Source: Catalimonadaceae bacterium (GTDB lineage Bacteria; Bacteroidota; Bacteroidia; Cytophagales; Flexibacteraceae). From it: a stretch of 49,741 nt of DNA. The position numbers and the translations under genes are program-made. The first letter of the stretch is position 1. Each line of letters starts with the position of its first letter. Shown here in pieces: positions 1,247-20,482 of the stretch. The notes beneath the pieces are model-generated. The model ran no database searches, was not told where the DNA came from, and saw only the letters and a list, made by a program, of their open reading frames with translations. The stretch lies in contig DAIOVD010000006.1 in assembly GCA_036759185.1 (NCBI GenBank), positions 1 to 49,741 of the forward strand. The letters are read 5' to 3'.

Positions 1247-2835
1247 TCACTCGTTGATCCATCTTCCTATCCATTTCTGATCGCCTTTCCGGGCCAAGTA
1301 GGTGTACATGCCGGAAGGCAGATTGGCCAGAGAGACGGGAGAACCGCTTCCGGCCCAGCCCTCAAAAACCCGGCGGCCATCGGTGGCAAACAAATTCAAC
1401 TCCAACCGACCTTCGACGCCCGAAAACCAAACATCACCCGAACCTGGATTGGGGTAGAGCCTGAGAGTCTTCGCCCATTTGGGTGCTCTTGTACTTAGCG
1501 GGATGGTATCGGCAAAAGGATCGTAAGGAAGGCCGATTCCGGAGATTTTCATAAAGAACATTTCATCTCCTGTACCTCCCTGGCGGCGGGCTTTACCGGC
1601 CAGAACCACATTTCCCAAACCATCAAAAGCCAGGTCATTGATCTCAGCAGGAACTTTAACCAAGTTTCCACTCTTTGGCAAAGGCTTTTTCCAAAGCAGG
1701 ATGCTGTCCGGACTGTAGAGCTTAATAAAATTGCTGTCTGAGTTTGTGGTGCTGCGTTCAAAGGCGAGAATATTGCCATCCTGCATGGTGGCCAGAACGG
1801 AACCGGATTTTGCAGTGTTTTCTCCTCCCCAGATTTTGTGGCCGCTGGCATCAAATTTTCCAAAGAAATACGGGCTGGATTACTGCCATAGGTACCACTG
1901 GCAACAAGGGATTGGTAGCGGGTCTGCCGGACCACGGTATCAAACACCAGATTTGGCGCCGTCCCAAACCAAACCGTATCCTGGCCCAGTTGATTGCCGT
2001 TCTCATCGATTTCCACTGACCAGATCATTCTTTCGGCCATGCCACTCAATAAGTAGTGCCCGTTTCTCATGGGCTCGATGTTGTTGCCTTTGCAATACCA
2101 GTCGTTTCCTCCATTGAAGCGCTGGGTCCATTGCAACTGGCCATTGTAGCTCACTTTGATCAGAAGCCAGTCCTGCAAACCACCAATTGTACTGAAGTCA
2201 GAACCCATAACAAATGTGCCCCCATCCGAAGTAGGCAGCACCTTGGATACTTGAGGATCATTCAGCCCTGCACTCAAAGGAAGTTTCCAGATGGAATTTC
2301 CATTGGTATCGACCTTCTGGATAAGGATTTTCGAGTCCAGTATCGTGTCACCAACCGACTTTGATGCGATCACCAGGTTGCCTTCGAAACTTTTATGGAT
2401 TTTCATATCAGGTGTGAAGCTTGTCCAACCACCAACCCGTCGCACAAAAATTGTATCACCAGTATTCGCCTGCAATTTCACTAAACCAATGCCATAAGCG
2501 GTACCTGATGAATTTTGTATTGCATAGCCCCACTCCCTAGCAGCAATCGCTGAAAAAATTGTCGATTCATTAAAATATACAATTCCATGAGATGACAAAA
2601 TCTTTGTACCTACTAAAAACTGCCGCTGCCAATCCACACTTTGCCCAAATGAAATCTGATAGAGCAGAAGTATAGATAGCAGCGGCAGGTATTTCTTTAG
2701 TCGTTCTCCTGGTGAAGAGATTTCCAGTCCTGTCGATGCCCGCTCTTTCCTGAGGTATTGCCTGAACCGTTCTTTTGCCTTCTGTTTCCATATTCCTGCC
2801 ATATCGATGAATTTCATTTCGGGTTCCGATCGCAA
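1247..2835 (-). pseudogene. T9SS-sorted secreted repeat protein (beta-propeller-like), interrupted by one frameshift near 1868-1882
   Basis: ORF 1549..2835 carries a hydrophobic signal segment (KKYLPLLSILLLYQISFGQ). ORF 1247..1786, in another frame, ends in a T9SS C-terminal domain (LRLYPNPGSG...GMYTYLARKGDQKWIGRWINE). The downstream frame stays protein-like upstream of its Met (SSPYFFGKFDASGHKIWGGENTAKSGSVLATMQDG) back to a stop at 1880-1882. The upstream frame becomes nonsense after ...GTYGSNPA. Confidence 0.7.
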
Positions 2836-3128
2836 GCCGAATATCCGCTAAAAACCGGAATTGCCGGCATCGTTTTTTTGAACATCACCGGATGAAAAAC
2901 AGAGAGGTGTGTTCATTGGGATGTTCATTGCTTTTCGGGTGTGTTGATAGGTGGGGATACAAATCAACAAAGAGGATTCTGATGTTTGAATTATTCAGGT
3001 TCAGATTATTGAAATGATGAGGCAGTTGCATCGTTCTGCACGAAGTTGCATAGCTGAACCGTTTTAAACAGAACATTTGCTTTTTTTAATCCCAAAAAAT
3101 TATTTGATTTGAGTTCATTCCAATTCCC

Positions 3129-4934
3129 ATGAAACGAACTCAATTTCTCCTTCTTCTCCCGGTTTTATTTCTTGCGTTGAGTTTTCAATCTTTTGGCCAA
3201 ATGACCACGGTCTGGCAAAAACAGATGACCGGTACCGGTTTTTTTCTGAATTCTAAAGTAGCACCCGACGGCAAGGTTTATTCTGTGGGCTATTTCTGGG
3301 GAAAAAAGGCCGTCTTTGGAAACACCGAGATTTGGGCCGATACAGTTTTTGATCCGAATGTTTGGACCACTGGAAATGCCGATAACATAGAGTCAACTGG
3401 TTTCGTTGCCTGTCAGGACATGAATGGAGATTTTGTTTGGGCCCGGCCTGTAACCACTTATTGTGGAATTGATGGTATGACACTTTCACATATTTGTGTG
3501 GACGGAGCCGGAAATGCAGTTGTGGCTGGTAATTTTTATTACCGACATTACAGTCCAGTCAATGGGTGGAGTGCCTCGTTCAATTCGGTTCCATTTTTTC
3601 AGATCCCAAATGATCCTCAAGGTGACCTCCTGGGGGGCTCCCATTTTGCTTTTGTCCTGAAAATATCTCCTCAGGGTGATCTACTTTGGAATAAAGTATT
3701 TCGATCCGGACGCAATTCTCAAAATTTACATCTTGAATTTGTTAACAATACGATTGAGCTTCTGGTTCAACACAACGATACCTTAAAGGTGGACGGTGCG
3801 GTTTATTGCAATGGTTTAACCAATGGCTATATCAATGAATATGCCCTGCTGAAACTAACAACGGATGGTACGGTTATATCTGTTCAGAACCGAAATTTTC
3901 ATAATCTGGTTGTTCCACCAGGCCCACCATCAGGTCGACAGGGGCTTCAAAGAATTTTTATTCGCAGGCTACCCAATCTTTCCTGGGCCCTGGCACTGTT
4001 TGATTTTGCCACATATGGAACGATGGTCGTCGATATCTCACCTGATTTTTCAACCATTCTGGATACGGTATCATTTAAAACCCGTTCAGCAACTGCAATC
4101 GCAAACAACTATTTTAATCCGGGTCCGGTTTTAGTACTTGGAGACATCGTTCAATTGCCCGAGGGAAAAAGAGGCTATATTTTTCAATTTGATACCCGAA
4201 ATTATGGGGATGAAAAGCTGATCTGGAAAAACGACACCCTGGACCTTGGAATTCCGCCAACCGATACAAGTCTTGGAACGAATACGAATATTGGAAATGC
4301 ATTTCTTCTCAAAACGGAAGGAACCTCCTGCATAAAACAAGTTTTGATGTTGCCTCCTGTTGGGACTTATTATGGCTTGGGAGCCAATCAAACCAGCACG
4401 GGTAATTTTTTCACCATCCCAAATTATTTTCCATCCGCTCTCAAACAATTTGATCGCAATGGAAATTTCATTTCCAGCCTTGATCTGAGTCAGGCACATA
4501 ATTCGGTTATAGAAAGCACCGAATTTGAATTTGGGGATGCTTTAATCGAATATGGCGACTCTAAAATTGAAAAGGCTGGAAATCATCTCTACATTTCCTA
4601 TGGACCGTACCTGACCAAAGTCCTGATCAATGAAGTGGCCACAACGGATGTTTCATTTTCAGGATGTTTATCCAACCGCACCCTTCTTACAACCATCCAG
4701 GAACAGGAACTCCGTGATGTCTATGTTTTTAAGATGGACCAGAGTATTGTGTATCACCAATCCTCCAATGAAGATGGATTGTATCGTTTGGTGAACGCTT
4801 TGGGGCAGACCATTTCCGAAGGTGATTTGTCAGGCCTTGAAACCCGGATTCAATCCAAAGGTCAACCCAAGGGCATCTACATGCTTACAATTCAACAGAA
4901 AAATAAGCAGACCACACATCGGGTTATGTGGTAG
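3129..4934 (+). CDS. T9SS-sorted secreted protein, function unknown
   Basis: N-terminal signal peptide MKRTQFLLLLPVLFLALSFQSFGQ. The C-terminal ~80 aa resemble a T9SS type A sorting domain (...YRLVNALGQTISEGDL...GIYMLTIQQKNKQTTHRVMW). Confidence 0.8.
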   Translation: MKRTQFLLLLPVLFLALSFQSFGQMTTVWQKQMTGTGFFLNSKVAPDGKVYSVGYFWGKKAVFGNTEIWADTVFDPNVWTTGNADNIESTGFVACQDMNGDFVWARPVTTYCGIDGMTLSHICVDGAGNAVVAGNFYYRHYSPVNGWSASFNSVPFFQIPNDPQGDLLGGSHFAFVLKISPQGDLLWNKVFRSGRNSQNLHLEFVNNTIELLVQHNDTLKVDGAVYCNGLTNGYINEYALLKLTTDGTVISVQNRNFHNLVVPPGPPSGRQGLQRIFIRRLPNLSWALALFDFATYGTMVVDISPDFSTILDTVSFKTRSATAIANNYFNPGPVLVLGDIVQLPEGKRGYIFQFDTRNYGDEKLIWKNDTLDLGIPPTDTSLGTNTNIGNAFLLKTEGTSCIKQVLMLPPVGTYYGLGANQTSTGNFFTIPNYFPSALKQFDRNGNFISSLDLSQAHNSVIESTEFEFGDALIEYGDSKIEKAGNHLYISYGPYLTKVLINEVATTDVSFSGCLSNRTLLTTIQEQELRDVYVFKMDQSIVYHQSSNEDGLYRLVNALGQTISEGDLSGLETRIQSKGQPKGIYMLTIQQKNKQTTHRVMW

Positions 4935-5300
4935 TAGATGATAAGGATTTCAGGATCGGACTTTTATTCCGCAATTGAGAATCGGTAATAATCTGACAAA
5001 ACGGATTGGTTGCGCCCGGACTAGTTCCGAATTATCTGTTGTTTTTATGCTAGGAAATCCCCTGCCGGGCGGGAATTGAATCTCCATAAAAAGCGGTTCG
5101 CATTTCACTTTTGCATAATTTTCAATGCGTAAAAATTTTTATGCACGAAATTTTATGAAGATGGGGAAATAAAAAGGAGAGTCCTTCGTCTCATTGATTC
5201 GGGCAGTCCAGCGCCTGCAAATGTATTTTCGGGCACCTGTCATTTTGATGAGTTGAGGCACATTTCCTGGTGAAGATCAAACCTTCCAACATGCCTCCTT

Positions 5301-6350
5301 TCATAATTTTGGCTTTCCCGAAGGTTGTTTTGGCATAAACCAACTCTCATGAACAGGTAGTTTCCAGCCCCGAAGTTTGGCATAGTCTTCAATTGGGCAC
5401 AAAAACAGAGCCGTTCGGTCAGCCTTGTTCACTTCGGCTTTCCCAAATGGATATATGGCTCCCGGTTCGGCGCCAAACCAATTGTTTCCACCAAACCAGC
5501 CATATTTCTGGCAATGCTCCCAGTATGTACTATCACTGTTGAATGGCTCCCTTATTCGGCAATAATCAATGGCACTCGCCCAATCTTCAGGATACAAATC
5601 CAACTTGCGGATGGCATCCAGAGCATAAGGCTCCAGCTTTTTTAGCGTCTCGCCGTCTGCATGGCGAATCAAAACTTCTACTTGTCCCGTACCTGCGTTC
5701 CGGCCGGTTTCCCTGAATTCGCCCAGTAAGTGAAAACCTGGCCAGCCGTATTCTGCACATATTTCCAGAAACTCTTTTCTGTTTTCCAGATCCAGAACCC
5801 GGATTTTTCTCCACCTCCTTTTCCCTGAAACAAAAATAGATCGCCAACCGGTTCTGTATCGTTGGTCCTTTATCCCAATTCGATTAATCCTGGCAATCAA
5901 AGGCTTGTTTACGTTTGATTTGTACACCCGGAAACAGGAATCCATCGTTTTTCTCAGCCGCTTATTTTGAGGGAGGTATATGAATTTGCGAAAGGCGTCG
6001 GATTTTTGTTGGAGATAAATATGGTGCTCCATCATTTCTCTGACATTCCGGTAAGTGCCGCCCCTCATGGAAAATCTTTGCAAATAATATCCCGCCAATC
6101 GGGAGTCGCCCAATGTATGTGCATTCACCGCAGCCATCAGATAATCCTGGTTAAAACCCTGAACGGAATCCAGAGCAAAGGCAATCCTGAAGCAGGAATC
6201 CGATTTGGCATAAGATGAATCCATAAAATGATGCTGACCAAGATAAAAATTTGTGTAGTAAACCACATGTTGCGGTGACTGACCAATCGATTGCGCTCCC
6301 CAAATACTGATGTGTAAAAGACTTAGAAATGCGGTTTTGAATTGAAACAC
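5301..6350 (-). CDS. Hypothetical secreted protein (GTG start)
   Basis: 349-aa ORF with a signal-like N-terminus (MFQFKTAFLSLLHISIWGAQSIGQ). I recognise no family. Confidence 0.6.
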   Translation of the reverse strand: MFQFKTAFLSLLHISIWGAQSIGQSPQHVVYYTNFYLGQHHFMDSSYAKSDSCFRIAFALDSVQGFNQDYLMAAVNAHTLGDSRLAGYYLQRFSMRGGTYRNVREMMEHHIYLQQKSDAFRKFIYLPQNKRLRKTMDSCFRVYKSNVNKPLIARINRIGIKDQRYRTGWRSIFVSGKRRWRKIRVLDLENRKEFLEICAEYGWPGFHLLGEFRETGRNAGTGQVEVLIRHADGETLKKLEPYALDAIRKLDLYPEDWASAIDYCRIREPFNSDSTYWEHCQKYGWFGGNNWFGAEPGAIYPFGKAEVNKADRTALFLCPIEDYAKLRGWKLPVHESWFMPKQPSGKPKL

Positions 6351-6644
6351 GTTTTATTCTTAATTTTGAAGCGATAGATCCTTTGGTAGGTAACGTATTT
6401 ACGGGACAAGGATTTTATCGGAAAGGCAGGGAATAGCACCGATTCAGTTCCCACAAATCAAGGGTGGACCAAAATTGTAAGATCTCTCCCAGAGCACTTG
6501 CTGGGTGAAATGAAGAGGAGAGGAACTAACAGAAAACGTAATACCTTCAAGTTCATTGTAGCAATTTGATTCGAAAGTAGCCAAAATTCCCATGCCTGAA
6601 AATACAGATGGGTTATCCATGATCAGGTATAATGGCTGCCGGAT

Positions 6645-6963
6645 GTTTCCAGGCAATTGCCGGAAAGGTCAAAACAATTGTAAAAAATCCTCTAGGGGTT
6701 GGTAAAACATTTCCGGGAAGTCCAGGACCAATTTTACCAATTGCCAAACCCTTTTTATCAATTGTAAAAGTTGCGGCGGGAGTTGTACCGGATGGTTTAC
6801 CATAACCCGCCGCAATTTTTACAACCCCACAGCCGGGTTTTACTATTGGCGGCCACCCGGAGGGAATTCCCTGACGAGTTTTTTGGCAGTCCAAATGCTA
6901 CAGGGAATTGTACAGCGCATTTTTACAATTGGTAAACAGCACATAACAATTGTAAAAATCGTC
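6645..6963. repeat. Phased CAATTG array: three ~45-bp units of the form CAATTG-N15-CAATTGTAAAA
   Basis: CAATTG cores at 6654/6675, 6738/6759 and 6926/6947, each pair exactly 21 bp apart. GAATTG at 6905 lies a further 21 bp upstream of 6926. Related half-sites occur at 6473 (AATTGTAA) and 6812-6826 (GCAATTTTTACAACC). Confidence 0.85.
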
Positions 6964-7025
6964 CGTTCAGCAGCCGGAATCATTTTATCAACCCCATCAT
7001 CAGCCGGATATTGTCGAAAAACATC

Positions 7026-7169
7026 TGTTAAGTTTTTAAACTGATAATAAAAACTTAACAAAGTTGTTGAGTTTTTATTGTTAAGATATAAAATGCAACA
7101 AACAAAACTTAACAGAGATGTTGAGTTTTCAATTCTAAAATCAAAATCTCAACAACCAATTTTTAACAG
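7026..7169. repeat. Block of alternately oriented 11-12-nt segments (TGTTAAGTTTTT / AAAAACTTAACA / TGTTGAGTTTTT) forming alternative hairpins
   Basis: Segments: S1 7026-7037, S2 7049-7060, S3 7065-7076, S4 7079-7085, S5 7104-7114, S6 7119-7129, S7 7143-7154. S1:S2 is a perfect 12-bp complement. S2:S3 and S5:S6 pair with one G-U. The units at 7049-7076 and 7104-7129 are a ~26-bp direct repeat. Confidence 0.85.
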
Positions 7170-7275
7170 GCAATCATGATTACTGACTCGTCAGCCGTCT
7201 TCGTAAATCGGGACCCCGAACTTTGAAAATTACTATTCAAGTTGAAAATGAAGAAGCATAAGGTAAACCTCATCT

Positions 7276-7366
7276 GCGGTCAGACCGCCGCTCCTTCGTC
7301 GCTCCGGTACCGACCACATGCAAGGCAAACCACTCTCTCTGCATTCCTGCATTTCATTCATAATTT
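7276..7366 (+). repeat. Copy A of a ~90-bp imperfect direct repeat
   Basis: GCGGTCAGACCGCCGCTCCTTCGTCGCTCCGGTACCGACCACATGC...CCTGCATTTCATTCATAATTT aligns with 7637-7720 (few substitutions, one ~7-nt gap). Confidence 0.85.
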
Positions 7367-7636
7367 GGCGCTAAAGAGGCCACGTTCCGCATAACTCATC
7401 ATTCATCACTTGGCGCCAAGGTAAGCATCTCTCACCACTAATCAGCCCCACGATAAGCATCATTCTTGATGTGGATCATTTCCCCCAATCAGGCATCACC
7501 ATTGAATTATTTTTCGGGCACCTGTTGTGTTGATGCGTGGGGATTGAAAATGGCGCCTTGTTAAAAACCCTGCTTAAGCAGTGGGCGACACACGCATCCA
7601 GGCGGAGCAATGTCAACTGTTCCGTTTTATTTGAAC

Positions 7637-7720
7637 GCGGTCTGACCGCCACTCCTTCTTCGCTTTGGTACCGACCACATGCCTAGCCAAACACGCAATC
7701 CTGCATTTTATTCATAATTT
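7637..7720 (+). repeat. Copy B of the ~90-bp imperfect direct repeat
   Basis: GCGGTCTGACCGCCACTCCTTCTTCGCTTTGGTACCGACCACATGC...CCTGCATTTTATTCATAATTT, starting 361 bp downstream of copy A. Confidence 0.85.
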
Positions 7721-7764
7721 ATAACTCATAATTCAGCATTAAATCAGGCAGTTACCACCCTATC

Positions 7765-7792
7765 CACAAATCACACATCACAAATCACACAT
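7765..7792 (+). repeat. Perfect tandem duplication of the 14-mer CACAAATCACACAT
   Basis: Read directly: 7765-7778 is identical to 7779-7792, followed by an A8 run. Confidence 0.9.
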
Positions 7793-7854
7793 CAAAAAAA
7801 AGTGGTTTGCAGTCCAAAAGAAAGTTGCCTTTCTCTCAAACCACAAACCACTTT
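7793..7854 (-). terminator. Putative intrinsic terminator of the giant adhesin gene
   Basis: On the minus strand, AAAGTGGTTTG (7854-7844) pairs with CAAACCACTTT (7809-7799), followed by a U-run (7798-7793). It starts 19 nt after the stop codon. The loop is long (34 nt) and contains an inner AGAAAG/CTTTCT stem. Confidence 0.5.
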
Positions 7855-7872
7855 GGTTTCAGTTGGATGCGC

Positions 7873-10800
7873 TTACCGCACGATCAGCTTCCGGATATGG
7901 CGCACTTTGTCGTTCTGCACCTCCATGATGTACAAGCCGGCAGGAGTTCCTCTCAGATCCAGATCCTGGGACGCTTTGCCATCAGTGAGATCCAGTTCTT
8001 TTTCCAGAACCTGAACACCCGTGCTGTTGTACATACGGACGGTACTTTTCGCTGCCGTGGCCGACTCAAAATTGAGGTGGAAGAAACCATCGCCCGGATT
8101 CGGGTAGATTTCCAGAACATCCGACTTAGTGAGGGTTTGCTCAACATCTGTACAGATTACAAACGTTACCTTGATGGTATCGCGGAACGTACATCCATTG
8201 TTGCTGAGAACCTGTACCCAGTATTGTCCGGAAGCGCCAACGGTTACAGTTGGCGTGCCTGAATTATCAAACCATGAATAATCAGCAAAACCTGTACCGG
8301 CATTCAATACCACAGATGTTCCGATACAGGCTAGTGAATCTGGACCCAGATCAAGGGTGTTGATTTCTTTTGTTACCTGCACCAGATCAGAAGCCGTACA
8401 GCTACCTGACGTGACGGTCCAGGCAAATGTATTGACACCGGATCCCAGGTTGGTCACTTCTGAAACTGGATTGCCTGGCTGTGCAATGGTTCCGCTACCG
8501 GAAACCAGAGACCATACTCCAAATCCTGTAACAGGTGCTGTTGCGTTGAGGAAAGTGCTGCTTCCACAAATGGTTTTGTCAGCACCGGCAAGTGCGGTCA
8601 CATTTCCTGGCGTAGCATTGATGATGATTTCGTCAAAGGTTGGTGCACAAGGAGCGTTGCTGATGGTCCATCGGAAGATATTGGCTCCATTACCTAAACC
8701 GATTACCGTTGTACTGGCGCTGGTCAGGTTTGCAATTGTTCCGCTTCCGGAAACAAGTGACCAGCTACCGGTGCCTTGTGTTGGAGTATTGCCGGTTAAT
8801 GTTGCCGACGATCCGCAAATGGTCTGGTCGTTTCCGGCATTGGCCGCAACCGGATTGTTTACCACTGTAATCTGAACCTGGTCCACACTTGGCTGGCATA
8901 CGCCACTGGTGACGGTCCAGCTGAACACGTTCACACCGGCACCCAAACCTGTAACAGATGTCAGGCTGCCATTCGGGTTGGTAATATTTCCACTTCCCGA
9001 AACCAAAGCCCACACACCAGTGCCTGTTCCGGGATTGTTACCGATCAACTGGCTGACAGAACCACAAACGGTCTGGTCTGTTCCGGCATTGGCCGTAACG
9101 GCGGAAAGGGTTGTTGAAATGACCACCTCGTCGGCTGAAGCCGCACACGGAATATTGGTGATGGTCCAGCGGAAAACGTTGGCACCGTTTCCTAGTCCGG
9201 TCACTGTTGTATTCGGATCTGATGGATTGGTGATGGTTCCGGTTCCGGACACCAATGTCCACAATCCCGTTCCAGCCTGCGGAACATTTCCACTAAGTGT
9301 AGCAGTGGAAGTACAAAGGTTTTGATCAATTCCTGCAATTGACAGCGATACGGAATTGATTCGTTCAACGTTCACATCATCGGAACTTGTAGGACAGGTT
9401 CCATTGATGATGGTCCAGCGGAAAACATTCATACCTGCCCCAAGTGCCGTGACCTGAGTGGTAGGAGAGTTGGCATTGGTGAACGTTCCGGAACCTGATA
9501 CTACAGTCCATGTACCGGTTCCTGTTCCGGCGTTGTTACCGGAAAGTTGCGTCGATTCACTGCACAACACCTGATCCTGTCCGGCAACTGCTGCAACGGC
9601 ATTGGTGGTAGAGTTGATGATGACTTCGTCTGTGCTGGCAGCACAAGGTGAGTTGGAAATGGTCCAACGGAAGGTGTTGGCGCCAGTGCCGAGTCCGGTA
9701 ACCTGAGTTTGAGGATTGAACACATCCTGAATCTGTCCGCTTCCTGAGACCAGAGTCCAGAGGCCATTTCCGATGGAAGGAGTTGTAGCGGCAAGTGTGG
9801 CAGAATTGGTACAGATGTTTTGATCTGTTCCGGCAAATGCAACGGAAGGAGCTGGAACACGGGTCACCACTACATCGTCAAATGAAGGAGGACAATTTCC
9901 ATTGGTGATGGTCCAGCGGAAAACGTTAAGTCCGGTTCCGAGTCCGGTTACGGTTGATGTCGGGCTGGTTGGTGATGTGATGGTTCCTGTTCCCGAAACC
10001 AGTGACCACTGTCCGATTCCGAACGTTGCGGTGTTCCCAGCCAGTGTTGCCTGTGTATTACAAAGAGTCTGATTCTCTCCCGCTTGTGCGATGGTGGCAT
10101 TTCCAAGATTGGTGATGATGACATCGTCTGTTGTCTGACTGCATGGAGGATTGGTCACAGTCCATCGGAAAACGTTTTGTCCGTTCCCAAGGTTTGTCAC
10201 CAGTGAATTCGGACTGGAAGAATTTTCGATTGAGCCGGAACCTGAAATCAGTGTCCAGATTCCCGTTCCGGATGACAACGGAGAAGCCTGAAGATTGCCT
10301 TGTCCACCACAAACAGACTGATCCTGACCTGCACTGGCAGTTTGAGGAAGAACCCGTGTTATCCGGACTGTATCTTTGGATTGTGGACATGAACCGTTGG
10401 TAATCGTCCACACAAAAGTGTTCACCCCGTTTCCGAGGCCTGAGACACTGGCGTTCGGGGAGGTTGGATTGACAAGTGTTCCGGAACCGGAAACAAGTGA
10501 CCAGATTCCGGAAGAAGGGGTAGGAGTATTTCCTGCAAGGACAACCTGCTCGCTGCAAAGAGTTTGATCTGCCCCAGCCTGAGCTGTTACAGACGGCGTC
10601 ACCACAATGTTTAGGTCATCGGTGGTAGCTGGACAGGTTCCGTTGCTGCTTGTCCAACGGAAAACGTTGTTTCCGCTTCCCAAACCAGTTACCTGAGAAT
10701 TGGGTTGAGCAGGATTCGCAATGACTCCGGTTCCTGAGACAAGTGTCCAGAGACCGGTTCCGACTGTAATGGTATTTCCAGTCAGAGTCGCACTGGTTCC

Positions 10801-13800
10801 ACAGATATTCTGGTCTGCTCCTACAAATGCTGGGGTTGGTGAGGCATATCGGGTGATGGTCACGGTGTCTTTGCTGGTGGCACAGCCGGGAACCGAAATA
10901 GTCCACACGAAGCGGTTGATTCCTTCTGAAAGTCCCGAAACTCCTGAGTTCGCTGAATTCGGGCTGCTCACTATTCCATTTCCCGCGATTGAAGTCCAGG
11001 TTCCGGTTGCAGTACCAGTGGCTGCGTTTCCAGCCAGAGTTGCGGAAGTCGCACAAATGAACTGATCTGCTCCGGCAACGGCCACCTGGCCAGGTCCTGA
11101 GTAGGTAATCGTAACTTCAGAAAGGGAGTTTCCACAGGAGTTGGAAATGGTCCAACGGAAAACGTTTGTACCCTGACCAAGATTCGAAACAGCTGAATTA
11201 GGTGAGTTAGGATTGGTAATGATTCCACTGCCGCTGAGCAAAGTCCATGTTCCGGTTCCGGAAACAGGTGTGTTCCCTTCAAGAAAAACAGTCGGAGAAC
11301 AGGTAGTGTAACTTGGTCCTGCGTTGGCAGTGGTAGGTGGAGATGCAATCTGAACACTGTATTCTTCGATTTCTCCGGATTCGTAAGGACCGGTAAAACA
11401 GGCGGAAGAACTTGGTATAGAAGTTCCTGGATTGAAAGCAAAAATTCGCATTGGAACTGTTGTGCCTGGAGTGCCGATGTTATTGGCGAAGAAGAAATTG
11501 CCCGTAAACAAGGTTGAATTTGTTAGTGTAGGGGACTGGAGAACCTCGTTGGCATCGTCATAGTCTCCGTCATTATTAAAGTCAATCCAGATTGCCACAT
11601 ACATGCCCGCCGAAGACAAACTTACTGAAAGTGATTTGGTTGTTCCCAAACAAACAGAACCGGTCACATTTTTAAAATTCTGGTACGCTCCTTTGAATTG
11701 GTCGGTCAGGCTGTTGTTGTTGATACCTGCAAAATTTACATTGGTGATGTAGCGGTTTGCCGCAAAAGAGTTTTTCTGGTTGATGGGAGTGGCGCAACTA
11801 ATGTTAACATTCACAGGTGTTGAGTATGCCGGGGCACACGTGCCATTGGTTACCTGTGCACGTAAAGAGAGGATATCTGGCGTTTCACTGGTCACATAAA
11901 ATGTATCCGGATTGCTGCCTGTAATTGACGTAAAAACGCCACTGCCTCCAAAGGCATATTGCCAGACAACAGTGCCAGTATGACCAGACTGCCCGGTTAA
12001 AATTGATCCGTTTGAAACAATATTCAATGGATTTACATTGGTTGTGCCAGCCACGCTGAAGCAGGAAACCTGCTGAATACAAACGTTGTAATCTCCATAA
12101 ACCGGGGAGCTGCCGTAAATTCGAATGTAGTAAGTAGTGCCTATGTTCAGGTTTGTCATGTAAAGTGATTCTCCCAGACCAGCTGAACTGTCGTCCACAC
12201 ATCCTTTGGAAACCAGTGCGGCACATGTTCCGGAAAATCCTTCCACTACTGGATCGGATGCTCCTGAATTGTCCACAAATACACGTGCGTTGGCAGAAGT
12301 GGCTACAAATTTGATCCAGATATCATTGGCAACCGGCGCAGTCGAATTGCTGCAGGATGCTGGTGGAAGGCTTTGAGTTGCACCATAGTTACTGGTCAGA
12401 ATTTTTGTACAGGCTCCAACGGCGTTAACCGTCATGCTCATTGCTCCGGTGCAATTGTCATGCGATGGGGCCAGGATTCGGTCAATACAAAGTCCGAATG
12501 CACCTGGATTACTTGCCACAAAGTCATAAATCCGGACGTAAATAGTTTGACCGGCGGTGAGATTTAATAAAGTGTCTTCCTGATCTCCTGCGAATCCTCT
12601 GTCGCGGCAAGCCAGACTTGTGAGGGCTCCACAGCTTCCGGAATAGACTTCCATCACTCCATCAAAACCAGTGAGGCATGTCATTTTAAACTTGTGAAAT
12701 CCGGAAGTTGCGACGGTGAATTTGTACCAGACATCATCATCGGCAACTCCTGAACAGGCAGCCTGAGGGGATGTTGTTGCACCTACTGTAGTTCCGGCAA
12801 CCGGAAAAGTACAGTTGGTTCCTACTGAAATGGTTGTGGCAGTGGAGCATTCATCGTTTGCAATGGCAGTTGAAGACACTCGTTTCACACAAATATTGAA
12901 TGTACCGGTTGTTCCGGCCCACCCATACACACGTACATAATACGTTTGTCCTGCCACCAGTGTACCGGGAGCAACTTTTTCTGTGGCTGCGGCAGATACC
13001 TGATCGGAACAGGCAAGTGAAACAAGTCCACTACAGGTTCCGGAAAAGATTTCAAGAACAGGATCATATGAAAGCAAACGGGAAACGATGACAGAATCCC
13101 CTGGACCTGATGCAACGAATTTATACCAAACATCCTGAGCAGAGCTGGATGTTGCACCCTGGCAGGTTGCCGGTGCTATTGATTGAGTTGCGCCGGCACT
13201 GTTCCCGAGGGTTGCGTTGCAAGTAGTAGATCCGGTAAGAGTGATTGCATTTGCACAAAAATCATTTACCGCACTGGCAGGTGCCATTGACTTCACACAA
13301 ATATTGAAAATTCCTTCGGAGCCATTGAATCCATATACCCTGACAATGTAGGTAACACCTGGGATTAACGTACCTGGTGCTACTTTTTCAGTTGCGTCAT
13401 AAAAGTTGGGATTGTCTGAGCAGGTTAGTTCAGTAAGTCCTGAACAACTTCCACTGAAAATTTCCAGAACCGGATCAAATGTGTCAAACGGATCTACGAT
13501 GACGGAATCTCCAGCTGAAGTGGCAACAAATGTGTACCATAAATCATTGGCAAATGTGGAAGTGGAGCCTCCACAGGGTTGTGATGCAAGATCTTCAGAT
13601 GCACCCGTTGTATTGCCAGAAATACTGTTGCATGAACTGGAAGGAATTAAGTTGGTGGGAGATGTACAATCGTCATTAGCAGGTGCAGGTACAAAATCTG
13701 ATTTGAGGCAGGCATTAAAACTGCCGTCAATTCCATTCCAGCCATAGACCCGGAAATAATAGGTTTGTCCGGCTACAAGGGTTCCTGGAGCAAGTACTTC

Positions 13801-14709
13801 TGTCGCTTCTCCGCTTTGAGGGTCATCGGAACAGGCAAGGCTGATGAGACCAGTTGTACAGGATCCAGCAAAAAGTTCAATGACGGGATCAAAGCCTCCA
13901 AGGCCAGCCACGGAGATTGAATCGGTTGGTCCATTGGCCACAAAAGAATACCAGATATCTTTTGCAGTAGAGGAAGTAGCTCCACCGCAGGTTGCCGGAG
14001 CGTTTGATTGGGTTGCTCCAACTGTATTGCCAAGGAAAGGCGAACAGAAAGAACCCATAGGTTTGAAAGTGGCAGTTGCACAGCTATTGTTTGCAGGTGC
14101 TGAAAAAATGGTGGTGAAATCCAACCCCATATCCAACCAGGTTGTTGTGGCTGTGCCAGTTGTTGCAGCAGCATTCGTCGATGTCAGAGCTTTATTTGAA
14201 GGTGCCGCCGGCCCAAAGCTTGCCAGAACTGAAAATAAATTGGTGCTGGCACCAGAGTTCACCAACTCAACAATGAGGGTAGTGCCGGTTGGCAACGTAA
14301 ATTGCTGAACAATATCGATCACAAAATACGCATTGCCAGTACCATTTATCACCTGAGAAGAATTAAACAAAACAGGTGTTAGGTTCTGATAAAAGGTAGT
14401 TCCTGAACCCCCAAACGTAGAGGTTTGTGTGTACCCAAGTTTCACCTGAAAATTCGTCAGGGTTACAGTCGAAGGAGTGTTGAGAGACTTTAAGAAATAG
14501 AGCTTGTCGACCACTCCGGTTGGAGGGTTGCCGAGGTCGGCAGCTGTATATAAAAACTGAACTTTTTTATCCAATCCATTAAAACCGGTGGATGCCCAGA
14601 TTCCCCCCAATTCCTTTTTATACTGCTGGGCAGCAACTGGATTGGATATCACATAGGACAGTAAAACAAGAAATGAAAACAGGAGTCGTCTGGTAGTTGA
14701 TTGATTCAT
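7873..14709 (-). CDS. Giant modular T9SS-sorted cell-surface protein (putative adhesin), 2278 aa
   Basis: Start taken at the ATG at 14709, which gives the signal peptide MNQSTTRRLLFSFLVLLSYVISNPVAAQ. Architecture: N-terminal domain, 5 Cys-rich PPC-like modules, a GEVED-like domain (IWIDFNNDGDYDD...YESGEIEEYSV), 12 tandem 83-aa repeats and a T9SS C-terminal domain (LEIYPNPGDGFFHLNFE...GLYIMEVQNDKVRHIRKLIVR). Confidence 0.9.
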   Translation of the reverse strand: MNQSTTRRLLFSFLVLLSYVISNPVAAQQYKKELGGIWASTGFNGLDKKVQFLYTAADLGNPPTGVVDKLYFLKSLNTPSTVTLTNFQVKLGYTQTSTFGGSGTTFYQNLTPVLFNSSQVINGTGNAYFVIDIVQQFTLPTGTTLIVELVNSGASTNLFSVLASFGPAAPSNKALTSTNAAATTGTATTTWLDMGLDFTTIFSAPANNSCATATFKPMGSFCSPFLGNTVGATQSNAPATCGGATSSTAKDIWYSFVANGPTDSISVAGLGGFDPVIELFAGSCTTGLISLACSDDPQSGEATEVLAPGTLVAGQTYYFRVYGWNGIDGSFNACLKSDFVPAPANDDCTSPTNLIPSSSCNSISGNTTGASEDLASQPCGGSTSTFANDLWYTFVATSAGDSVIVDPFDTFDPVLEIFSGSCSGLTELTCSDNPNFYDATEKVAPGTLIPGVTYIVRVYGFNGSEGIFNICVKSMAPASAVNDFCANAITLTGSTTCNATLGNSAGATQSIAPATCQGATSSSAQDVWYKFVASGPGDSVIVSRLLSYDPVLEIFSGTCSGLVSLACSDQVSAAATEKVAPGTLVAGQTYYVRVYGWAGTTGTFNICVKRVSSTAIANDECSTATTISVGTNCTFPVAGTTVGATTSPQAACSGVADDDVWYKFTVATSGFHKFKMTCLTGFDGVMEVYSGSCGALTSLACRDRGFAGDQEDTLLNLTAGQTIYVRIYDFVASNPGAFGLCIDRILAPSHDNCTGAMSMTVNAVGACTKILTSNYGATQSLPPASCSNSTAPVANDIWIKFVATSANARVFVDNSGASDPVVEGFSGTCAALVSKGCVDDSSAGLGESLYMTNLNIGTTYYIRIYGSSPVYGDYNVCIQQVSCFSVAGTTNVNPLNIVSNGSILTGQSGHTGTVVWQYAFGGSGVFTSITGSNPDTFYVTSETPDILSLRAQVTNGTCAPAYSTPVNVNISCATPINQKNSFAANRYITNVNFAGINNNSLTDQFKGAYQNFKNVTGSVCLGTTKSLSVSLSSAGMYVAIWIDFNNDGDYDDANEVLQSPTLTNSTLFTGNFFFANNIGTPGTTVPMRIFAFNPGTSIPSSSACFTGPYESGEIEEYSVQIASPPTTANAGPSYTTCSPTVFLEGNTPVSGTGTWTLLSGSGIITNPNSPNSAVSNLGQGTNVFRWTISNSCGNSLSEVTITYSGPGQVAVAGADQFICATSATLAGNAATGTATGTWTSIAGNGIVSSPNSANSGVSGLSEGINRFVWTISVPGCATSKDTVTITRYASPTPAFVGADQNICGTSATLTGNTITVGTGLWTLVSGTGVIANPAQPNSQVTGLGSGNNVFRWTSSNGTCPATTDDLNIVVTPSVTAQAGADQTLCSEQVVLAGNTPTPSSGIWSLVSGSGTLVNPTSPNASVSGLGNGVNTFVWTITNGSCPQSKDTVRITRVLPQTASAGQDQSVCGGQGNLQASPLSSGTGIWTLISGSGSIENSSSPNSLVTNLGNGQNVFRWTVTNPPCSQTTDDVIITNLGNATIAQAGENQTLCNTQATLAGNTATFGIGQWSLVSGTGTITSPTSPTSTVTGLGTGLNVFRWTITNGNCPPSFDDVVVTRVPAPSVAFAGTDQNICTNSATLAATTPSIGNGLWTLVSGSGQIQDVFNPQTQVTGLGTGANTFRWTISNSPCAASTDEVIINSTTNAVAAVAGQDQVLCSESTQLSGNNAGTGTGTWTVVSGSGTFTNANSPTTQVTALGAGMNVFRWTIINGTCPTSSDDVNVERINSVSLSIAGIDQNLCTSTATLSGNVPQAGTGLWTLVSGTGTITNPSDPNTTVTGLGNGANVFRWTITNIPCAASADEVVISTTLSAVTANAGTDQTVCGSVSQLIGNNPGTGTGVWALVSGSGNITNPNGSLTSVTGLGAGVNVFSWTVTSGVCQPSVDQVQITVVNNPVAANAGNDQTICGSSATLTGNTPTQGTGSWSLVSGSGTIANLTSASTTVIGLGNGANIFRWTISNAPCAPTFDEIIINATPGNVTALAGADKTICGSSTFLNATAPVTGFGVWSLVSGSGTIAQPGNPVSEVTNLGSGVNTFAWTVTSGSCTASDLVQVTKEINTLDLGPDSLACIGTSVVLNAGTGFADYSWFDNSGTPTVTVGASGQYWVQVLSNNGCTFRDTIKVTFVICTDVEQTLTKSDVLEIYPNPGDGFFHLNFESATAAKSTVRMYNSTGVQVLEKELDLTDGKASQDLDLRGTPAGLYIMEVQNDKVRHIRKLIVR
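8359..11334 (-). repeat. Twelve tandem ~83-aa (~249-bp) Ig-like repeats inside the adhesin gene, plus a degenerate 13th
   Basis: The AG.DQ..C anchor recurs at ORF aa 1151, 1233, 1317, 1399, 1481, 1564, 1647, 1730, 1813, 1896, 1979 and 2062. Consensus: AG.DQ..C...A.L.GN.P..GTG.W.LVSGSG.I..P..P...VT.LG.G.N.FRWT..NG.C....D.V.I. Confidence 0.85.
12067..14097 (-). repeat. Five tandem ~136-aa Cys-rich modules inside the adhesin gene (PPC / pre-peptidase C-terminal-like)
   Basis: Recurring pattern: C..A......C....GNT.GAT......C.G.....A.D.WY.F.A....D...V......DPV.E.FSG.C..L..LACSD........E.....L.AGQTYY.RVYG..G..G.FN.C. Spans aa 225-901 of the ORF as listed. Confidence 0.75.
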
Positions 14710-15019
14710 AGGACGAAGAATTAAAACCGTTGAACCGCCAAAAGTGCACGATTGGCGCCGATTAATCAAAAAATAGAGAAAATTGTTTCAATTCTTTGGA
14801 AAAAGTACATGCCAAAGGGTGCCATATCCTGATGAATGGAATTGGAAAGTTGTTGAAATTCTTCCAAACAGGGACCCGCTGAAACCCTTCTGTATTTGCC
14901 GGAAACCATCATTTTCATTCATAACCAATCAGTTGGAATAAATTTTTCTTCATCCACATTATGGATTCTCGATGAAAATTTATAGAATTGGCCCCTGTTA
15001 TTTTCCAATCTGACCAAAC

Positions 15020-16796: not shown

Positions 16797-17336
16797 ATGG
16801 AAGCGATCGTATTTTTTGTTTTTTTCGGACTCTACATTTTCATCCGCGTTTTATTCGGTGGGGGAGAGTCGGCATGGGAAAAACAAACAATTGTGCATAA
16901 AGAAGGGATTCTGCTGTTCAAAAGCCGGCAGTTCAGAAAAGCCCGTGAATGGTTTGAAGCGTCCTTGAAACACAGGCCTTATGATTGCCTCAATCTCGTG
17001 ATGCTGGGAGATATTGCCCTTCATTTTGACGAACCGGAAAGGGCGTTGTTTTATGGACAGAAAGCGCTCCGGATGGACAATACCATGTGGCAGACTCACC
17101 TGCTGATGTCCAAGGCGTTCTATGCCATTCAGGTGAAAGATGAATCGTTAAAGCATGCGAAAAATGCAGTTTGGTTCGGCCGGAAGTCAGCTGATGCACA
17201 ATACTGGTACGGGAAACTGATGGTGGAGAAAGGAGAAATGGAGAATGGTCTGCAGCATATGTCCGAAGCCTATACCCTGGGGGAAGAAGATGCCGGACCG
17301 TATCTCAGGTCCAGAAAATTTATATCGAATTCGTAA
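16797..17336 (+). CDS. Membrane-anchored TPR-repeat protein
   Basis: N-terminal TM segment (AIVFFVFFGLYIFIRVLFGG) followed by TPR-like helical repeats (...ARMWFEASLK..., ...ALFYGQKALRMDN...). Confidence 0.6.
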   Translation: MEAIVFFVFFGLYIFIRVLFGGGESAWEKQTIVHKEGILLFKSRQFRKAREWFEASLKHRPYDCLNLVMLGDIALHFDEPERALFYGQKALRMDNTMWQTHLLMSKAFYAIQVKDESLKHAKNAVWFGRKSADAQYWYGKLMVEKGEMENGLQHMSEAYTLGEEDAGPYLRSRKFISNS

Positions 17337-17355
17337 TCAATTAAACAGAAATATA

Positions 17356-18411
17356 ATGAACGCTCGCAAAGCAGAATTGCTTCAGAAAACCATCCAGCAC
17401 ATTGACATATCACAGCACAATGTGGTTTCTATGGTCGAAGCTATGGAACATATGGCTTTTCAGGCCCGCAACATGGCCCGTGGCGCTAAAATTTTCAACA
17501 TGATGCAGGCAGATAAAAACTGCACTGTGTATTTAACACTCGCTGGTTCTTTGATTTCAGCAGGTCTGAAAAAAGTCGTGGTTGACCTCATTAAGAACAA
17601 CATGGTCGATGTGATTGTATCTACCGGTGCCAACATTGTGGATCAGGATTTCTTCGAGGCACTCGGTTTCAAACATTATGTGGGAACTCCATATGGTATC
17701 GACGATCAGGAACTTCGCGAACTGATGATCGACCGTATTTATGATACCTTCATCGATGAGGAAGATCTTCGTGTATGTGACGCTACAATTGGTGAAATCT
17801 GCGATACACTTCCGCATAAGCCACATTCAAGCCGCGAATTCATTCGTGAAATGGGTCGGTTTCTGGCTGATAATGAAAAATATGCCGAGTCAAGAAAGGA
17901 CAGTATCGTATATCAGTGCTTTAAAAAGGGAGTGCCGATTTTCGTTCCGGCCTTCTCTGATTGCTCCGCCGGTTTTGGTCTTGTGCACCACCAGTTCCAC
18001 AATCCGGAATCACACATCAGCATCGATTCTGCCAAAGACTTTCTCGAAATTACCAAAATCAAACTGGCCAACCAGGAGTCTGGTCTTTTTATGATCGGTG
18101 GCGGTGTTCCGAAGAACTTTGTTCAGGACATCGTGGTTGCCTGCGACATTCTCGAAAAAGAAGCACCAATGCACAAATATGCCGTTCAGATTACAGTGGC
18201 AGATGAGCGTGACGGAGCCCTTTCGGGTTCCACATTGAAGGAAGCCTGTTCCTGGGGGAAAGTGGATACCGTTTACGAGCAAATGGTATTCAGCGAAGCC
18301 ACCATCGCAATGCCGATTATTGCAGGTTATGCACTTCACAAACGTGAATGGGTGGGTCGTCCTGAACGCCGCTTGAACGAAGTGCTTGATGGTGCTATGG
18401 TTACCGCATAG
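17356..18411 (+). CDS. Deoxyhypusine synthase-like protein (DHS / homospermidine-synthase-like family)
   Basis: Start chosen at the ATG at 17356 (MNARKAELLQ...); the longer ORF overlaps the TPR gene. NAD-binding style motifs (TLAGSLISAG, STGANIVDQD, IGGGVPKNF) and the catalytic-lysine context EACSWGKV are present. Confidence 0.8.
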   Translation: MNARKAELLQKTIQHIDISQHNVVSMVEAMEHMAFQARNMARGAKIFNMMQADKNCTVYLTLAGSLISAGLKKVVVDLIKNNMVDVIVSTGANIVDQDFFEALGFKHYVGTPYGIDDQELRELMIDRIYDTFIDEEDLRVCDATIGEICDTLPHKPHSSREFIREMGRFLADNEKYAESRKDSIVYQCFKKGVPIFVPAFSDCSAGFGLVHHQFHNPESHISIDSAKDFLEITKIKLANQESGLFMIGGGVPKNFVQDIVVACDILEKEAPMHKYAVQITVADERDGALSGSTLKEACSWGKVDTVYEQMVFSEATIAMPIIAGYALHKREWVGRPERRLNEVLDGAMVTA

Positions 18412-20456: not shown

Positions 20457-20482
20457 TTTAACAATGGTTTAGTTGATGGAAA

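Follow-up and report, generated by a model that had tools for sequence, protein, structure and literature searches.

A conserved, helically phased array of CAATTG sites as a candidate protein-binding platform upstream of a variable T9SS-secreted-protein locus

The ARG boxes recognized by ArgR are 18-bp palindromes that occur in pairs, 21 bp apart from center to center, and are bound by dimers of dimers or by hexamers. Plasmid and phage iterons and centromeres (parC, sopC) consist of tandem phased motif copies that extend over a few hundred base pairs and form a nucleoprotein complex. The REP325 element of E. coli is built of 77-bp tandem units, and a total of 355 REPs are annotated in E. coli (PMC4550694). 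LytTR operators comprise two 9-bp repeats separated by a 12-bp (11–13) spacer, giving a 21-bp period that places both repeats on one helix face for cooperative binding; the sequence of the repeats differs by system, whereas their length and spacing are strictly retained (PMC2714321, PMC6193735).

The window analyzed here, i.e., the whole 49,741-nt stretch of contig DAIOVD010000006.1 from a Catalimonadaceae bacterium, contains an array at 6654..7003 with ~17 rows and a 21-nt periodicity, as delimited by autocorrelation, gapless alignment, and nhmmer. Over the whole of 6636–7005, the autocorrelation reached z = 5.8, 3.8, 4.2, and 4.7 at lags of 21, 42, 63, and 84, respectively; the same periodicity is seen in L054, a metagenomic contig carrying a homologous array, and a register slip of 1 nt lies near 6885–6905. 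CAATTG occurs at 6654/6675, 6738/6759, and 6926/6947, each pair being spaced by 21 bp. In unit I, core S1 (CAATTG, 6654..6659) forms the center of GGCAATTGCC, and S2 (6675..6685) reads CAATTGTAAAA; in unit II, S3 (CAATTG, 6738..6743) is preceded by TTTTAC, and S4 (6759..6769) reads CAATTGTAAAA as well; in unit III, a third in-phase site, S5 (GAATTG, 6905..6910), is followed by S6 (CAATTG, 6926..6931, preceded by TTTTTA) and S7 (CAATTGTAAAA, 6947..6957). CAATTGTAAAA has four exact copies, every one of them inside the array. Viewed on the gene strand, the units are direct repeats of TTT..CAATTG at 21-bp intervals. An extended palindrome at each site was dropped as a description, flank symmetry around single cores being just 2–5/8. 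The preliminary description had located all of these sites correctly, including GAATTG at 6905 and the 84 bp between units I and II. Those sites are real, but the array is larger than it had proposed: it covers ~350 bp (6654–7003) and includes weak in-phase sites, read in the 21-nt register, at 6696..6701 (GGGTTG, followed by GTAAAA), 21 bp past S2, and at 6780..6785 (GAGTTG, followed by TACC), 21 bp past S4. Its contention that the clustering exceeds background is borne out by random placement, in which six CAATTG fell within 300 bp in 3 of 200,000 trials and three 21-bp pairs arose in none of 200,000. Over the full window, CAATTG is neither enriched nor depleted (29 observed vs. 31.5 expected); among the palindromic hexamers of the window, it is the most clustered.

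The array shares its geometry with LytTR operators (AgrA/ComE/PlnC/HdrR), all three pairs being spaced by 21 bp from start to start, and the contig encodes a LytTR response regulator. The earlier remark that no described element has such a layout was therefore overstated, given that 21-bp paired sites define LytTR operators (PMC2714321, PMC6193735). Whereas LytTR sites consist of one pair 4–11 bp upstream of −35, the array has at least seven strong sites in ~17 rows over 350 bp, its cores are palindromic, and no identifiable promoter adjoins it. LytTR regulators are usually encoded next to their sites and autoregulated. Here, by contrast, the LytTR gene (27024–27746), the sole DNA-binding regulator detected by Pfam on the contig, lies 20 kb away; one CAATTG precedes it without a 21-bp partner, and autoregulation via the array motif was rejected for want of a paired site upstream of the gene. 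The observation that the gap is poor in ORFs and adjoined by no DNA-binding gene holds. Like ARG boxes, the cores are palindromic sites two helical turns apart and arranged in pairs, but the array lacks the ARG box (TGAAT..ATTCA), has no arginine genes nearby, and exceeds a two-box operator in length many times over. Iterons and centromeres resemble the array in their many helically phased short motifs and function independently of an adjacent gene; the array, however, is chromosomal, matches nothing in plasmid and phage collections, has no DnaA-box cluster, and consists of units that are strongly degenerate outside their cores. BIME/REP325 elements are likewise intergenic, with tandem units (77 bp vs. 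84 bp here) that each hold two hairpin-capable palindromic motifs, and they may be bound by nucleoid proteins in their position between genes. REPs are dispersed and high-copy, however, while the array occurs once in 49.7 kb and a scan of species-representative genomes returned at least one homologous locus beside ~120 chance-like single hits among the matches listed.

Several other kinds of element were rejected. A replication origin is not indicated, as DnaA boxes are at chance level (two 8/9 boxes in the gap, none in the array), no rep or dnaA gene was found, and the skew minimum near 6–8 kb is shallow and not clean. A Bacteroidota promoter array was excluded because the gene strand of the gap lacks TAnnTTTG and the core spacing is unlike the −33/−7 arrangement; sigma-70-like matches within the array arise as a by-product of its repeats, and they represent a promoter type not used in this phylum. 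PorX sites were also excluded, since footprints I and II of the porT promoter (PMC8050853) lack CAATTG and are unlike the array unit.

The array was built by an 84-nt tandem duplication and a 75-nt inverted copy, and its units are paralogues. Units I and II constitute the tandem duplication (42/84 identical; z = 4.7 at lag 84), and unit III sits in an inverted copy of the unit II region (6695–6769 vs. 6921–6995, 71%), which also appears among the nhmmer self-hits. The left arm (6695..6769, plus strand) holds unit II and the right arm (6921..6995, minus strand) holds unit III, the latter arm being the best-conserved part of the array in the variability map. Since the units are paralogous, their three exact 21-bp spacings descend from one ancestral pair; the spacing noted previously is exact, but the three units do not count as independent evidence. 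What counts is that cores and spacing have been kept despite decay of the N15 spacers to a similarity close to random: in comparisons of the units, core and TAAAA together are identical at 17/17 positions and spacer length is never altered, whereas the spacers themselves are identical at 1–7/15 positions, i.e., near random (~25%). Two further inverted repeats are present in the window. A perfect 12-nt repeat (6675–6686/6920–6931) is degraded in L054 by 6920 T>C and 6925 A>G, and a near-perfect 19-bp repeat at the array center (6762..6824; arms 6762–6780 and 6806–6824) is not kept in relatives, with three pairs broken in L054 by pairwise alignment and the breaks uncompensated.

Homologous copies of the array were found on three other Bacteroidota metagenome contigs at 84–89% identity. 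The array is thus far known from four metagenomic contigs, and its DNA was compared among three of them: the window (7001–6654), L054 (3423–3076), and L251 (67–414). Identity to the window is 88% for L054 and 86% for L251, without indels. The 348 aligned columns of the three genomes include 70 variable columns and zero indels, while indels do occur in the flanks, which fits a constraint on spacing. S1 is unchanged in L054 and reads CATTTG in L251, precisely where window–L251 homology stops; the six other phased hexamers (S2–S7) are invariant in all three genomes, with 0/36 positions varying vs. 20% of all columns (P about 3e-4). In the pairwise comparison of the window with L054, cores differ at 0/36 and N15 spacers at 7/45 positions; over the orthologue comparisons, core invariance has P about 3e-4 to 4e-3, so that the orthologue alignment proposed as a check shows cores and 21-bp spacing kept and spacers drifting. 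Long stretches outside the cores are also unvarying, e.g., 6782–6811 (window vs. L054), and the constraint therefore covers more than the cores. After scan correction, phasing of substitutions with the 21-nt register fell short of significance (p = 0.065 for two genomes, 0.14 for three). An nhmmer profile search of 1.77 Mb of DNA detected just three full copies (E about 1e-124 to 1e-126), and the 49.7-kb window holds no second copy; the array is accordingly not a dispersed REP/MITE-like repeat, an alternative that had been named as fatal to the proposal. Neither ORF clusters nor the adjacent 349-aa protein led to further loci: the former yielded no additional array copies, and the latter has no relatives in reference genomes and six distant homologues with neither synteny nor motif. 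The array is also absent from L245, where AT-rich DNA carries just loosely spaced AATTG-like sites and the β-helix gene is 70% identical to that of L054. A match of the symmetric unit to one phage (three near-identical contigs) lies within the 5′ end of a gene and was set aside as a chance or coding occurrence, and the 24-nt core of the promoter-proximal conserved motif is absent from viral contigs. As a separate observation, metagenomes commonly carry perfect 21-bp CAATTG minisatellites that are unrelated to the array block (84 = 4 × 21).

The neighbors of the array differ among all four genomes, yet the array persists. It holds 84–89% identity, whereas adjacent X proteins are 20–35% identical outside their 5′ ends and the non-coding DNA beside it either cannot be aligned or is 67% identical. 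Co-oriented secreted-protein genes lie 3′ of the array in the window, L054, and L251; on the fourth contig, P0015, convergent genes follow it and there is no co-oriented downstream gene. The gap is marked as a separate unit by an intrinsic terminator (7803..7850, minus strand) that belongs to the 2298-aa T9SS gene upstream and has a 20-bp stem and a U-run (−41 kcal/mol, z −7.3). On the distal side, the array is bounded by AU-rich palindromes, AAAACTTAACA..TGTTGAGTTTT (7026..7160), that are specific to the window and not found in L054 or L251. On the other side, a gene-proximal conserved motif (6545..6620, minus strand) also occurs upstream of the β-helix genes in L054 and L245; its 58-nt core is 89.7–94.8% identical, 6560–6588 (29 nt) shows zero substitutions in three genomes, and the motif is missing from L251. 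At the S1 breakpoint, the L251 sequence runs into ATCAACAC..CCCGAAAA, a short dispersed motif that is seen again at other gene boundaries of the window. Directly after the array in L251 comes a non-coding-like X leader (L251 429–596 = window 2941–2774, 89.3%), whose counterpart in the window (2774..2941, minus strand) lies 3.7 kb from the array and precedes T9SS gene X, which is frameshifted. On the gene strand, neither the X leader nor the interval from the array to the genes downstream contains a canonical Bacteroidota promoter (TTTG/TAnnTTTG), and the link between array and promoter is therefore positional only. A search of the 49.7-kb contig detected no gene for a partition protein, recombinase, integrase, transposase, methyltransferase, Rep protein, or relaxase.

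Given that three overlapping minus-strand ORFs cover the array, one L054 frame is open for ~143 codons, and the absence of indels resembles coding DNA, we considered whether the region is or was protein-coding, with a 7- or 28-residue repeat that is now frameshifted. This is scarcely credible: stops interrupt all six frames in three genomes, the synonymous fraction is 14–25% in every frame and thus at random level, variable sites are distributed 27/21/22 by codon position with no codon pattern, frame-B amino-acid identity (74%) equals the neutral expectation at 87% nucleotide identity, and no frame has an ATG start. The minus-strand ORFs match no Pfam or NCBIfam family and are not real genes; conserved protein homologs for them would have been the other finding fatal to the original proposal, and eight conceptual translations (548 aa concatenated) have no relatives in 5.8 billion clusters. 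An exhaustive HMMER search with ORF 6613..6894 returned as homologues two short ORFs (76–80 aa) called over other array copies; a weak match to a 1477-aa tandem-repeat protein (P0017, E = 8e-4) was also seen, but its E-value is inflated by nine identical repeats. A decayed copy of a neighboring gene was excluded as well, as a tblastn search of the gap with every ORF of the window gave self-hits only. A transcribed array that acts as RNA, either as the long 5′ leader of the cargo mRNA or as a separate non-coding RNA that serves as a sponge or processing platform by presenting repeated UUUUACAAUUG motifs or AU-rich hairpins to an RNA-binding protein, appears unlikely, although it deserves more weight than a coding origin. 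Both strands fold much better than shuffled sequences (z −5.4 and −4.5), a stem with a 15-nt loop is possible for each CAATTG pair, conservation extends over the whole block beyond the cores, the array and the genes downstream of it have no canonical promoter between them, and in L251 the array is followed directly by a short motif that elsewhere is located just 3′ of genes. Palindrome sets fold well anyway, however, and RNAalifold on the three genomes gave a covariation term of +4.9, with two pairs compensated and ~24, the 19-bp central hairpin included, lost in one or more genomes, in a test whose power is limited by n = 3 sequences. What is conserved is the sequence identity of the stems and not mere complementarity, and neither the in-phase triplets nor the 21-nt register over pairless rows has an RNA rationale. 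With Rfam 15, the window yielded two tRNAs only, and a permissive scan of 6300–7900 gave just miRNA- and snoRNA-like noise far below threshold.

We also regard as improbable that the array is a cassette-exchange anchor or an invertible switch, its cores being where a recombinase or other DNA-processing system binds or crosses over, assisted by phased accessory sites. The persistence of the array between differing flanks, the end of window–L251 homology exactly at S1, and the 75-nt inverted arms with the perfect 12-nt inverted repeat would suit such a role, but the lone breakpoint at a core may be coincidence, the 49.7 kb encode no recombinase, integrase, or transposase, and the block ends without terminal inverted repeats or target duplications. 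An inverton was rejected, as the central segment has one orientation in three genomes, the 12-nt repeat is degraded in L054, and no recombinase is encoded on the contig; a dispersed REP/BIME/MITE was rejected because the array has no second copy in 49.7 kb, one homologous locus among the reference-genome matches listed, and neither terminal inverted repeats nor target duplications at ~6542/6654 and ~7003. The null explanation, in which the array is a functionless relic of a locally duplicated and decayed 21-bp minisatellite that remains alike in a few close genomes, seems to us similarly doubtful. It can point to the origin of the units by tandem and inverted duplication, to the frequency of perfect 21-bp CAATTG minisatellites in metagenomes, to L245, which lacks the array, and to the divergence of the genomes, which is uncalibrated by an orthologous housekeeping gene. 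Against it, neutral decay cannot yield random-level paralogous spacers together with perfect cores and spacing, the cores are invariant among orthologues, 70 variable columns in 348 nt come with zero indels, and both the nearby non-coding DNA and the bodies of the adjacent proteins have diverged far more. Least supported among the DNA-level alternatives is an epigenetic ON/OFF switch, in which a CAATTG-specific methyltransferase competes with a binding protein as in pap/agn43. The cores have the 6-bp palindromic form usual for sites of type II methyltransferases, show perfect conservation, and cluster at a regulatory position, but the contig has no methyltransferase gene, the window-wide frequency of CAATTG gives no hint of a cognate restriction system, and methylation alone leaves the TTTTA/TAAAA flanks and the weak non-CAATTG in-phase sites unexplained; we consider this switch very improbable.

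The array is non-coding, conserved in cores and spacing, free of indels, and confined to a single locus whose neighbors change. The explanation we tentatively favor, with somewhat less than even confidence, is that it represents a cis-acting set of protein-binding sites in helical phase, located upstream of the variable T9SS-secreted-protein locus. Cooperative binding on one helix face, as originally proposed, is the best-supported reading, given the invariant cores, drifting spacers, and zero indels. In favor of phased binding are the clustering and exact 21-bp spacing, which are far beyond chance, the retention of cores and spacer length between paralogues whose N15 spacers are at random level, the exclusion of coding and the lack of support for an RNA fold, and the precedent of LytTR operators, with two 9-bp repeats and a 12-bp spacer on one helix face. 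The ~350-bp block would then act as a platform of sequence-specific sites 21 bp, or two helical turns, apart on the same side of the helix, where a dimeric or oligomerizing DNA-binding protein may occupy neighboring CAATTG-centered sites cooperatively, the strong sites being arranged as pairs and triplets with weaker in-phase sites between them. Since the array comes after the upstream gene's terminator and precedes secreted/T9SS genes of the same orientation, the most likely output would be transcriptional control, i.e., activation or repression of the variable cargo locus from upstream. Counting against a binding array, no regulator adjoins it on the contig, the candidate LytTR gene lacks a 21-bp partner site, P0015 has no co-oriented gene downstream, and L245 has no array despite its related β-helix gene. 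A bolder proposal, which we hold to be improbable, is an architectural, Bacteroidota-specific element along whose ~17 phased sites a protein polymerizes into a filament or loop that switches the T9SS-cargo locus, possibly in a methylation-sensitive manner, with the element also serving as an anchor for cassette exchange. Such a filament and anchor would explain how the array stays 85–88% identical and indel-free while its surroundings are replaced.

To our knowledge, very little is known about how the T9SS-exported repertoire is regulated in Bacteroidota beyond Bacteroides and Porphyromonas, few cis-regulatory elements have been defined in Cytophagia-like lineages, and we know of no described recognition site for the uncharacterized LytTR regulators of the phylum. 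The array, whose generality is limited to four metagenomic contigs, is non-coding yet can be likened to a housekeeping gene in its conservation (divergence being uncalibrated), and it survives full turnover of its neighbors. It would offer a clean probe for fishing out a DNA-binding protein, and it marks a cargo locus prone to recombination. If the protein that binds it were one of the uncharacterized LytTR regulators, the recognition site of such a regulator would become known; if it were another protein, the array would define a new operator or architectural system.

The genes of the window are chromosomal and Bacteroidota-like, and several of the encoded proteins carry a C-terminal sorting domain for type IX secretion (T9SS). 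The array (6654-7003, ~350 bp) lies in an ORF-poor gap of 1.5 kb (6351-7872) bounded by two minus-strand genes. One (5301-6350) encodes a protein of 349 aa, its family unknown, with an N-terminus that by eye resembles a signal peptide; the other (7873-14769) encodes a 2298-aa T9SS protein, and its transcription stops at a strong intrinsic terminator (7850-7803, minus strand). Inside the latter gene, near-matches to the unit geometry at 8733-8759 and 10473-10499 (CAATTG/CAAGTG-N15-CAAGTG, centre TTCCGG..CCGGAA) presumably reflect repetition in the coding sequence of its PKD-like domains. Cumulative GC skew over 2000-10000 has a shallow minimum at ~6-8 kb, adjoining the gap, where neither a DnaA-box cluster nor divergent gene orientation supports an origin. 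The contig also carries a DabA/DabB-type inorganic-carbon transporter pair (18582-23029) and a deoxyhypusine-synthase-like gene (17245-18411), neither related to the array.

All coordinates in the preliminary description proved correct. CAATTG is not enriched window-wide (29 observed, 31.5 expected); it is the most strongly clustered palindromic hexamer of the window. Of 200,000 random placements, 3 gave six copies within 300 bp and 0 gave three pairs spaced exactly 21 bp, confirming that clustering and phasing exceed background. The extended motif CAATTGTAAAA occurs exactly four times in the window, each time within the array. A 21-nt periodicity spans 6636-7005 (autocorrelation z 5.8; harmonics at 42, 63 and 84), so that the array exceeds three units; control segments of the window have nothing comparable, and the homologous region of L054, a Bacteroidota metagenome contig, is likewise 21-nt periodic. 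Set out in this register, the rows have the form CAATTG....TTTTA; positions 6696 and 6780 carry weaker in-phase sites, and the register slips by 1 nt near 6885-6905.

Units I and II (CAATTG pairs at 6654/6675 and 6738/6759) are parts of one 84-nt tandem duplication, and unit III (6926/6947) belongs to the copy of the unit II region made by a 75-nt inverted duplication (6695-6769 versus 6921-6995, 71%). Because the units are paralogues, their exact spacings are not three independent events. Between them, the core plus TAAAA is identical at 17/17 positions and the 15-nt spacers at 1-7/15; the informative point is that cores and spacing were kept while the spacers decayed to near-random similarity.

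Scanning reference genomes with the originally proposed unit pattern gave at least ~120 single, chance-like matches in unrelated phyla; among the matches listed, one was a true homologue, L054, from a MAG labelled Spirosoma fluviale, with identical 84/188-bp unit spacing. A third DNA copy, on contig L251, was reached via P0016, a short ORF called over it, and the contig of a similar ORF, P0015, provides a fourth copy at the protein level only. An alignment-profile search of 1.77 Mb of fetched DNA found three full copies and no second one in the window, at odds with a high-copy dispersed repeat. Pairwise identities among the window, L054 and L251 are 88.2, 85.6 and 85.3%; of 348 aligned columns, 70 vary and none contains an indel. 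Six hexamers, namely the CAATTG cores at 6675, 6738, 6759, 6926 and 6947 and the GAATTG at 6905, are invariant in all three genomes (0/36 positions vary, against 20% of all columns; P about 3e-4). The remaining core, at 6654, is altered only in L251 (CATTTG), precisely where homology of L251 to the window stops. Between the window and L054, the cores differ at 0/36 positions and the N15 spacers at 7/45, bearing out the expected conservation of cores and 21-bp spacing over spacers; an apparent concentration of substitutions in spacer phases of the register was not significant after correction (p = 0.065, 0.14). Variability is highest in the core-poor centre (6822-6904) and lowest in the unit III arm. 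L054 has a seventh CAATTG at 3314-3319 (window 6892-6897, CAAATG), created by a single substitution and outside the 21-bp register. The array appears unusually conserved, a view weakened, not removed, by the fetched pieces sharing no housekeeping orthologue to gauge genome divergence.

The neighbours of the array, by comparison, differ in every genome. In L251 it directly abuts a 168-nt non-coding-like leader, followed by gene X, which encodes a 471-aa protein with a T9SS tail. In the window, this leader (2941-2774, minus strand; 89% identical to that of L251) and a frameshifted gene X lie 3.7 kb from the array, separated from it by two unrelated genes. Gene X of the window (1247-2835, minus strand) is broken into overlapping ORFs (1247..1786 and 1549..2835) that, when joined, are collinear with the single 471-474-aa proteins of L054 and L251, and is therefore either a pseudogene with a frameshift or the product of an assembly error; X protein bodies are merely ~20-35% identical. 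A ~75-nt motif and then a β-helix gene come after the array in L054. Of these, the window retains only the motif (6545-6620), and L245, a contig without the array, has the motif with a β-helix gene 70% identical to that of L054. Within the motif, the 29-nt stretch AATTTTGGCTACTTTCGAATCAAATTGCT (6560-6588, gene strand) is identical in the window, L054 and L245 although the adjoining β-helix proteins of the latter two are just 70% identical, a constraint at the nucleotide level; it may be a promoter or operator. On the P0015 contig, convergent genes follow the array. β-helix-like and ~480-aa T9SS-tail genes form tandem paralogous pairs on contigs L246 and L247, which suggests that a family of cargo genes expands and contracts around loci of this kind.

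Other repeats occur in and around the gap. The dispersed motif ATCAACAC(..)CCCGAAAA, expected nowhere in the window by chance, is located at gene and cassette boundaries (window minus strand, 7511-7534, 2932-2948 and, degenerate, 5226-5253; L251, 415-438 and about 2130-2160). It directly follows the 349-aa gene and the L251 X gene, which share a ~90-nt 3' element (79% identical) that includes it, and also lies at the X leader start and the exact array/leader junction in L251. The distal half of the gap (7006-7872) has a strong 7-nt periodicity (z 5.9). A repeated element (7276-7366 and 7637-7720; 79-83% identical, 361 bp apart) contains the palindrome GCGGTCAGACCGC and ..CGACCACATGC..TTCATTCATAATTT, and its copy at 7669-7800 aligns weakly (67%) to L054 3573-3719. 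A second palindrome family, AAAACTTAACA-N3-4-TGTTGAGTTTT (7026-7160, 54-bp spacing), is absent from L054 and L251; it folds into hairpins rich in AU (up to -20 kcal/mol, z -4.9), which resemble bidirectional terminators or operator sites. The 14-nt sequence CACAAATCACACAT occurs as two tandem copies at 7765-7792. Perfect 21-bp-period CAATTG tandem repeats are common in metagenomes (many among contigs L125-L244; 13.6 copies of AATTGGCAATTGTTCTCTTAC at 5730-6014 of L015, a Bacteroidetes MAG), and their sequence is unrelated to that of the array.

Coding was the main rival, given the three ORFs on the minus strand that run over the array and the FTI......I.K reading of the repeat in some frames. 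No Pfam or NCBIfam family matched these ORFs, and eight concatenated conceptual translations (548 aa) had no match among 5.8 billion protein clusters. An exhaustive HMMER search with ORF 6613..6894, whose homologues would have pointed to a coding repeat, returned only P0015 (85% identical) and P0016 (65%), both gene calls over further array copies, and a borderline 1477-aa protein (E = 8e-4, a value that its nine identical tandem repeats inflate). In the three genomes, which align without gaps, stops interrupt 6/6 frames in each, synonymous changes make up 14-25% of codon differences across all frames, and variable sites fall 27/21/22 by codon position. We therefore reject a protein-coding array as extremely improbable. 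An RNA element is unlikely: both strands form much more stable folds than shuffled sequences do, as expected for a set of palindromes, but no Rfam family came near threshold, the RNAalifold covariation term was unfavourable (+4.9), and ~24 pairs, including the 19-bp central hairpin, are broken in at least one genome versus 2 compensated. Core identity, exact spacing, absence of indels and in-phase triplets agree better with double-stranded DNA being recognised on one face of the helix than with an RNA fold. A cluster of recombination or inversion sites would accord with the homology breakpoint at 6654, the reshuffled flanks and the short junction motif, but no recombinase was found in the window and the array has the same orientation in all three genomes, making it improbable; a functionless relic seems equally so, and a CAATTG-methylation switch, raised in the preliminary description, highly improbable.

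A protein-binding array is the best-supported, if unproven, reading, favoured by invariant cores, exact spacing and zero indels. Tentatively, and at somewhat less than even credence, we propose that the array acts in cis, as a platform on which helically phased sites bind protein and control the adjacent variable secreted-protein locus. From the observed sequence constraints we infer an oligomerising sequence-specific protein, whatever its identity, that would occupy the strong CAATTG-centred sites as pairs or triplets and spread onto weaker in-phase sites; the output from this upstream position would be transcriptional control of the highly variable locus. A canonical Bacteroidota promoter was not found on the gene strand from the upstream terminator to the downstream genes, nor in the X leader, so the array itself could be transcribed, and its link to a promoter is positional only.

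That no such layout had been described was an overstatement, as a 21-bp period is the hallmark of LytTR-family operators, in which two 9-bp repeats with a 12-bp spacer lie on one helix face, with fixed geometry and variable sequence (PMC2714321, PMC6193735). The array pairs share this period and the contig encodes one LytTR regulator, but that gene is 20 kb away and its own promoter has no paired site, and the array cores are palindromic and the array many times the length of one operator; it might work like a LytTR operator, membership in the class being unproven. Paired ARG boxes also have a 21-bp geometry, which they share with the array, but not their sequence. Plasmid iteron and centromere arrays have a similar long phased layout, but none of the genes associated with them accompanies the array, and plasmid and phage collections held no match to the array. 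PorX footprints do not resemble its motif. REP325/BIME clusters are likewise intergenic, with double palindromes in tandem, but they form high-copy families (PMC4550694). Seen so far in four metagenomic contigs only, the array is a well-defined, conserved, indel-free non-coding element.
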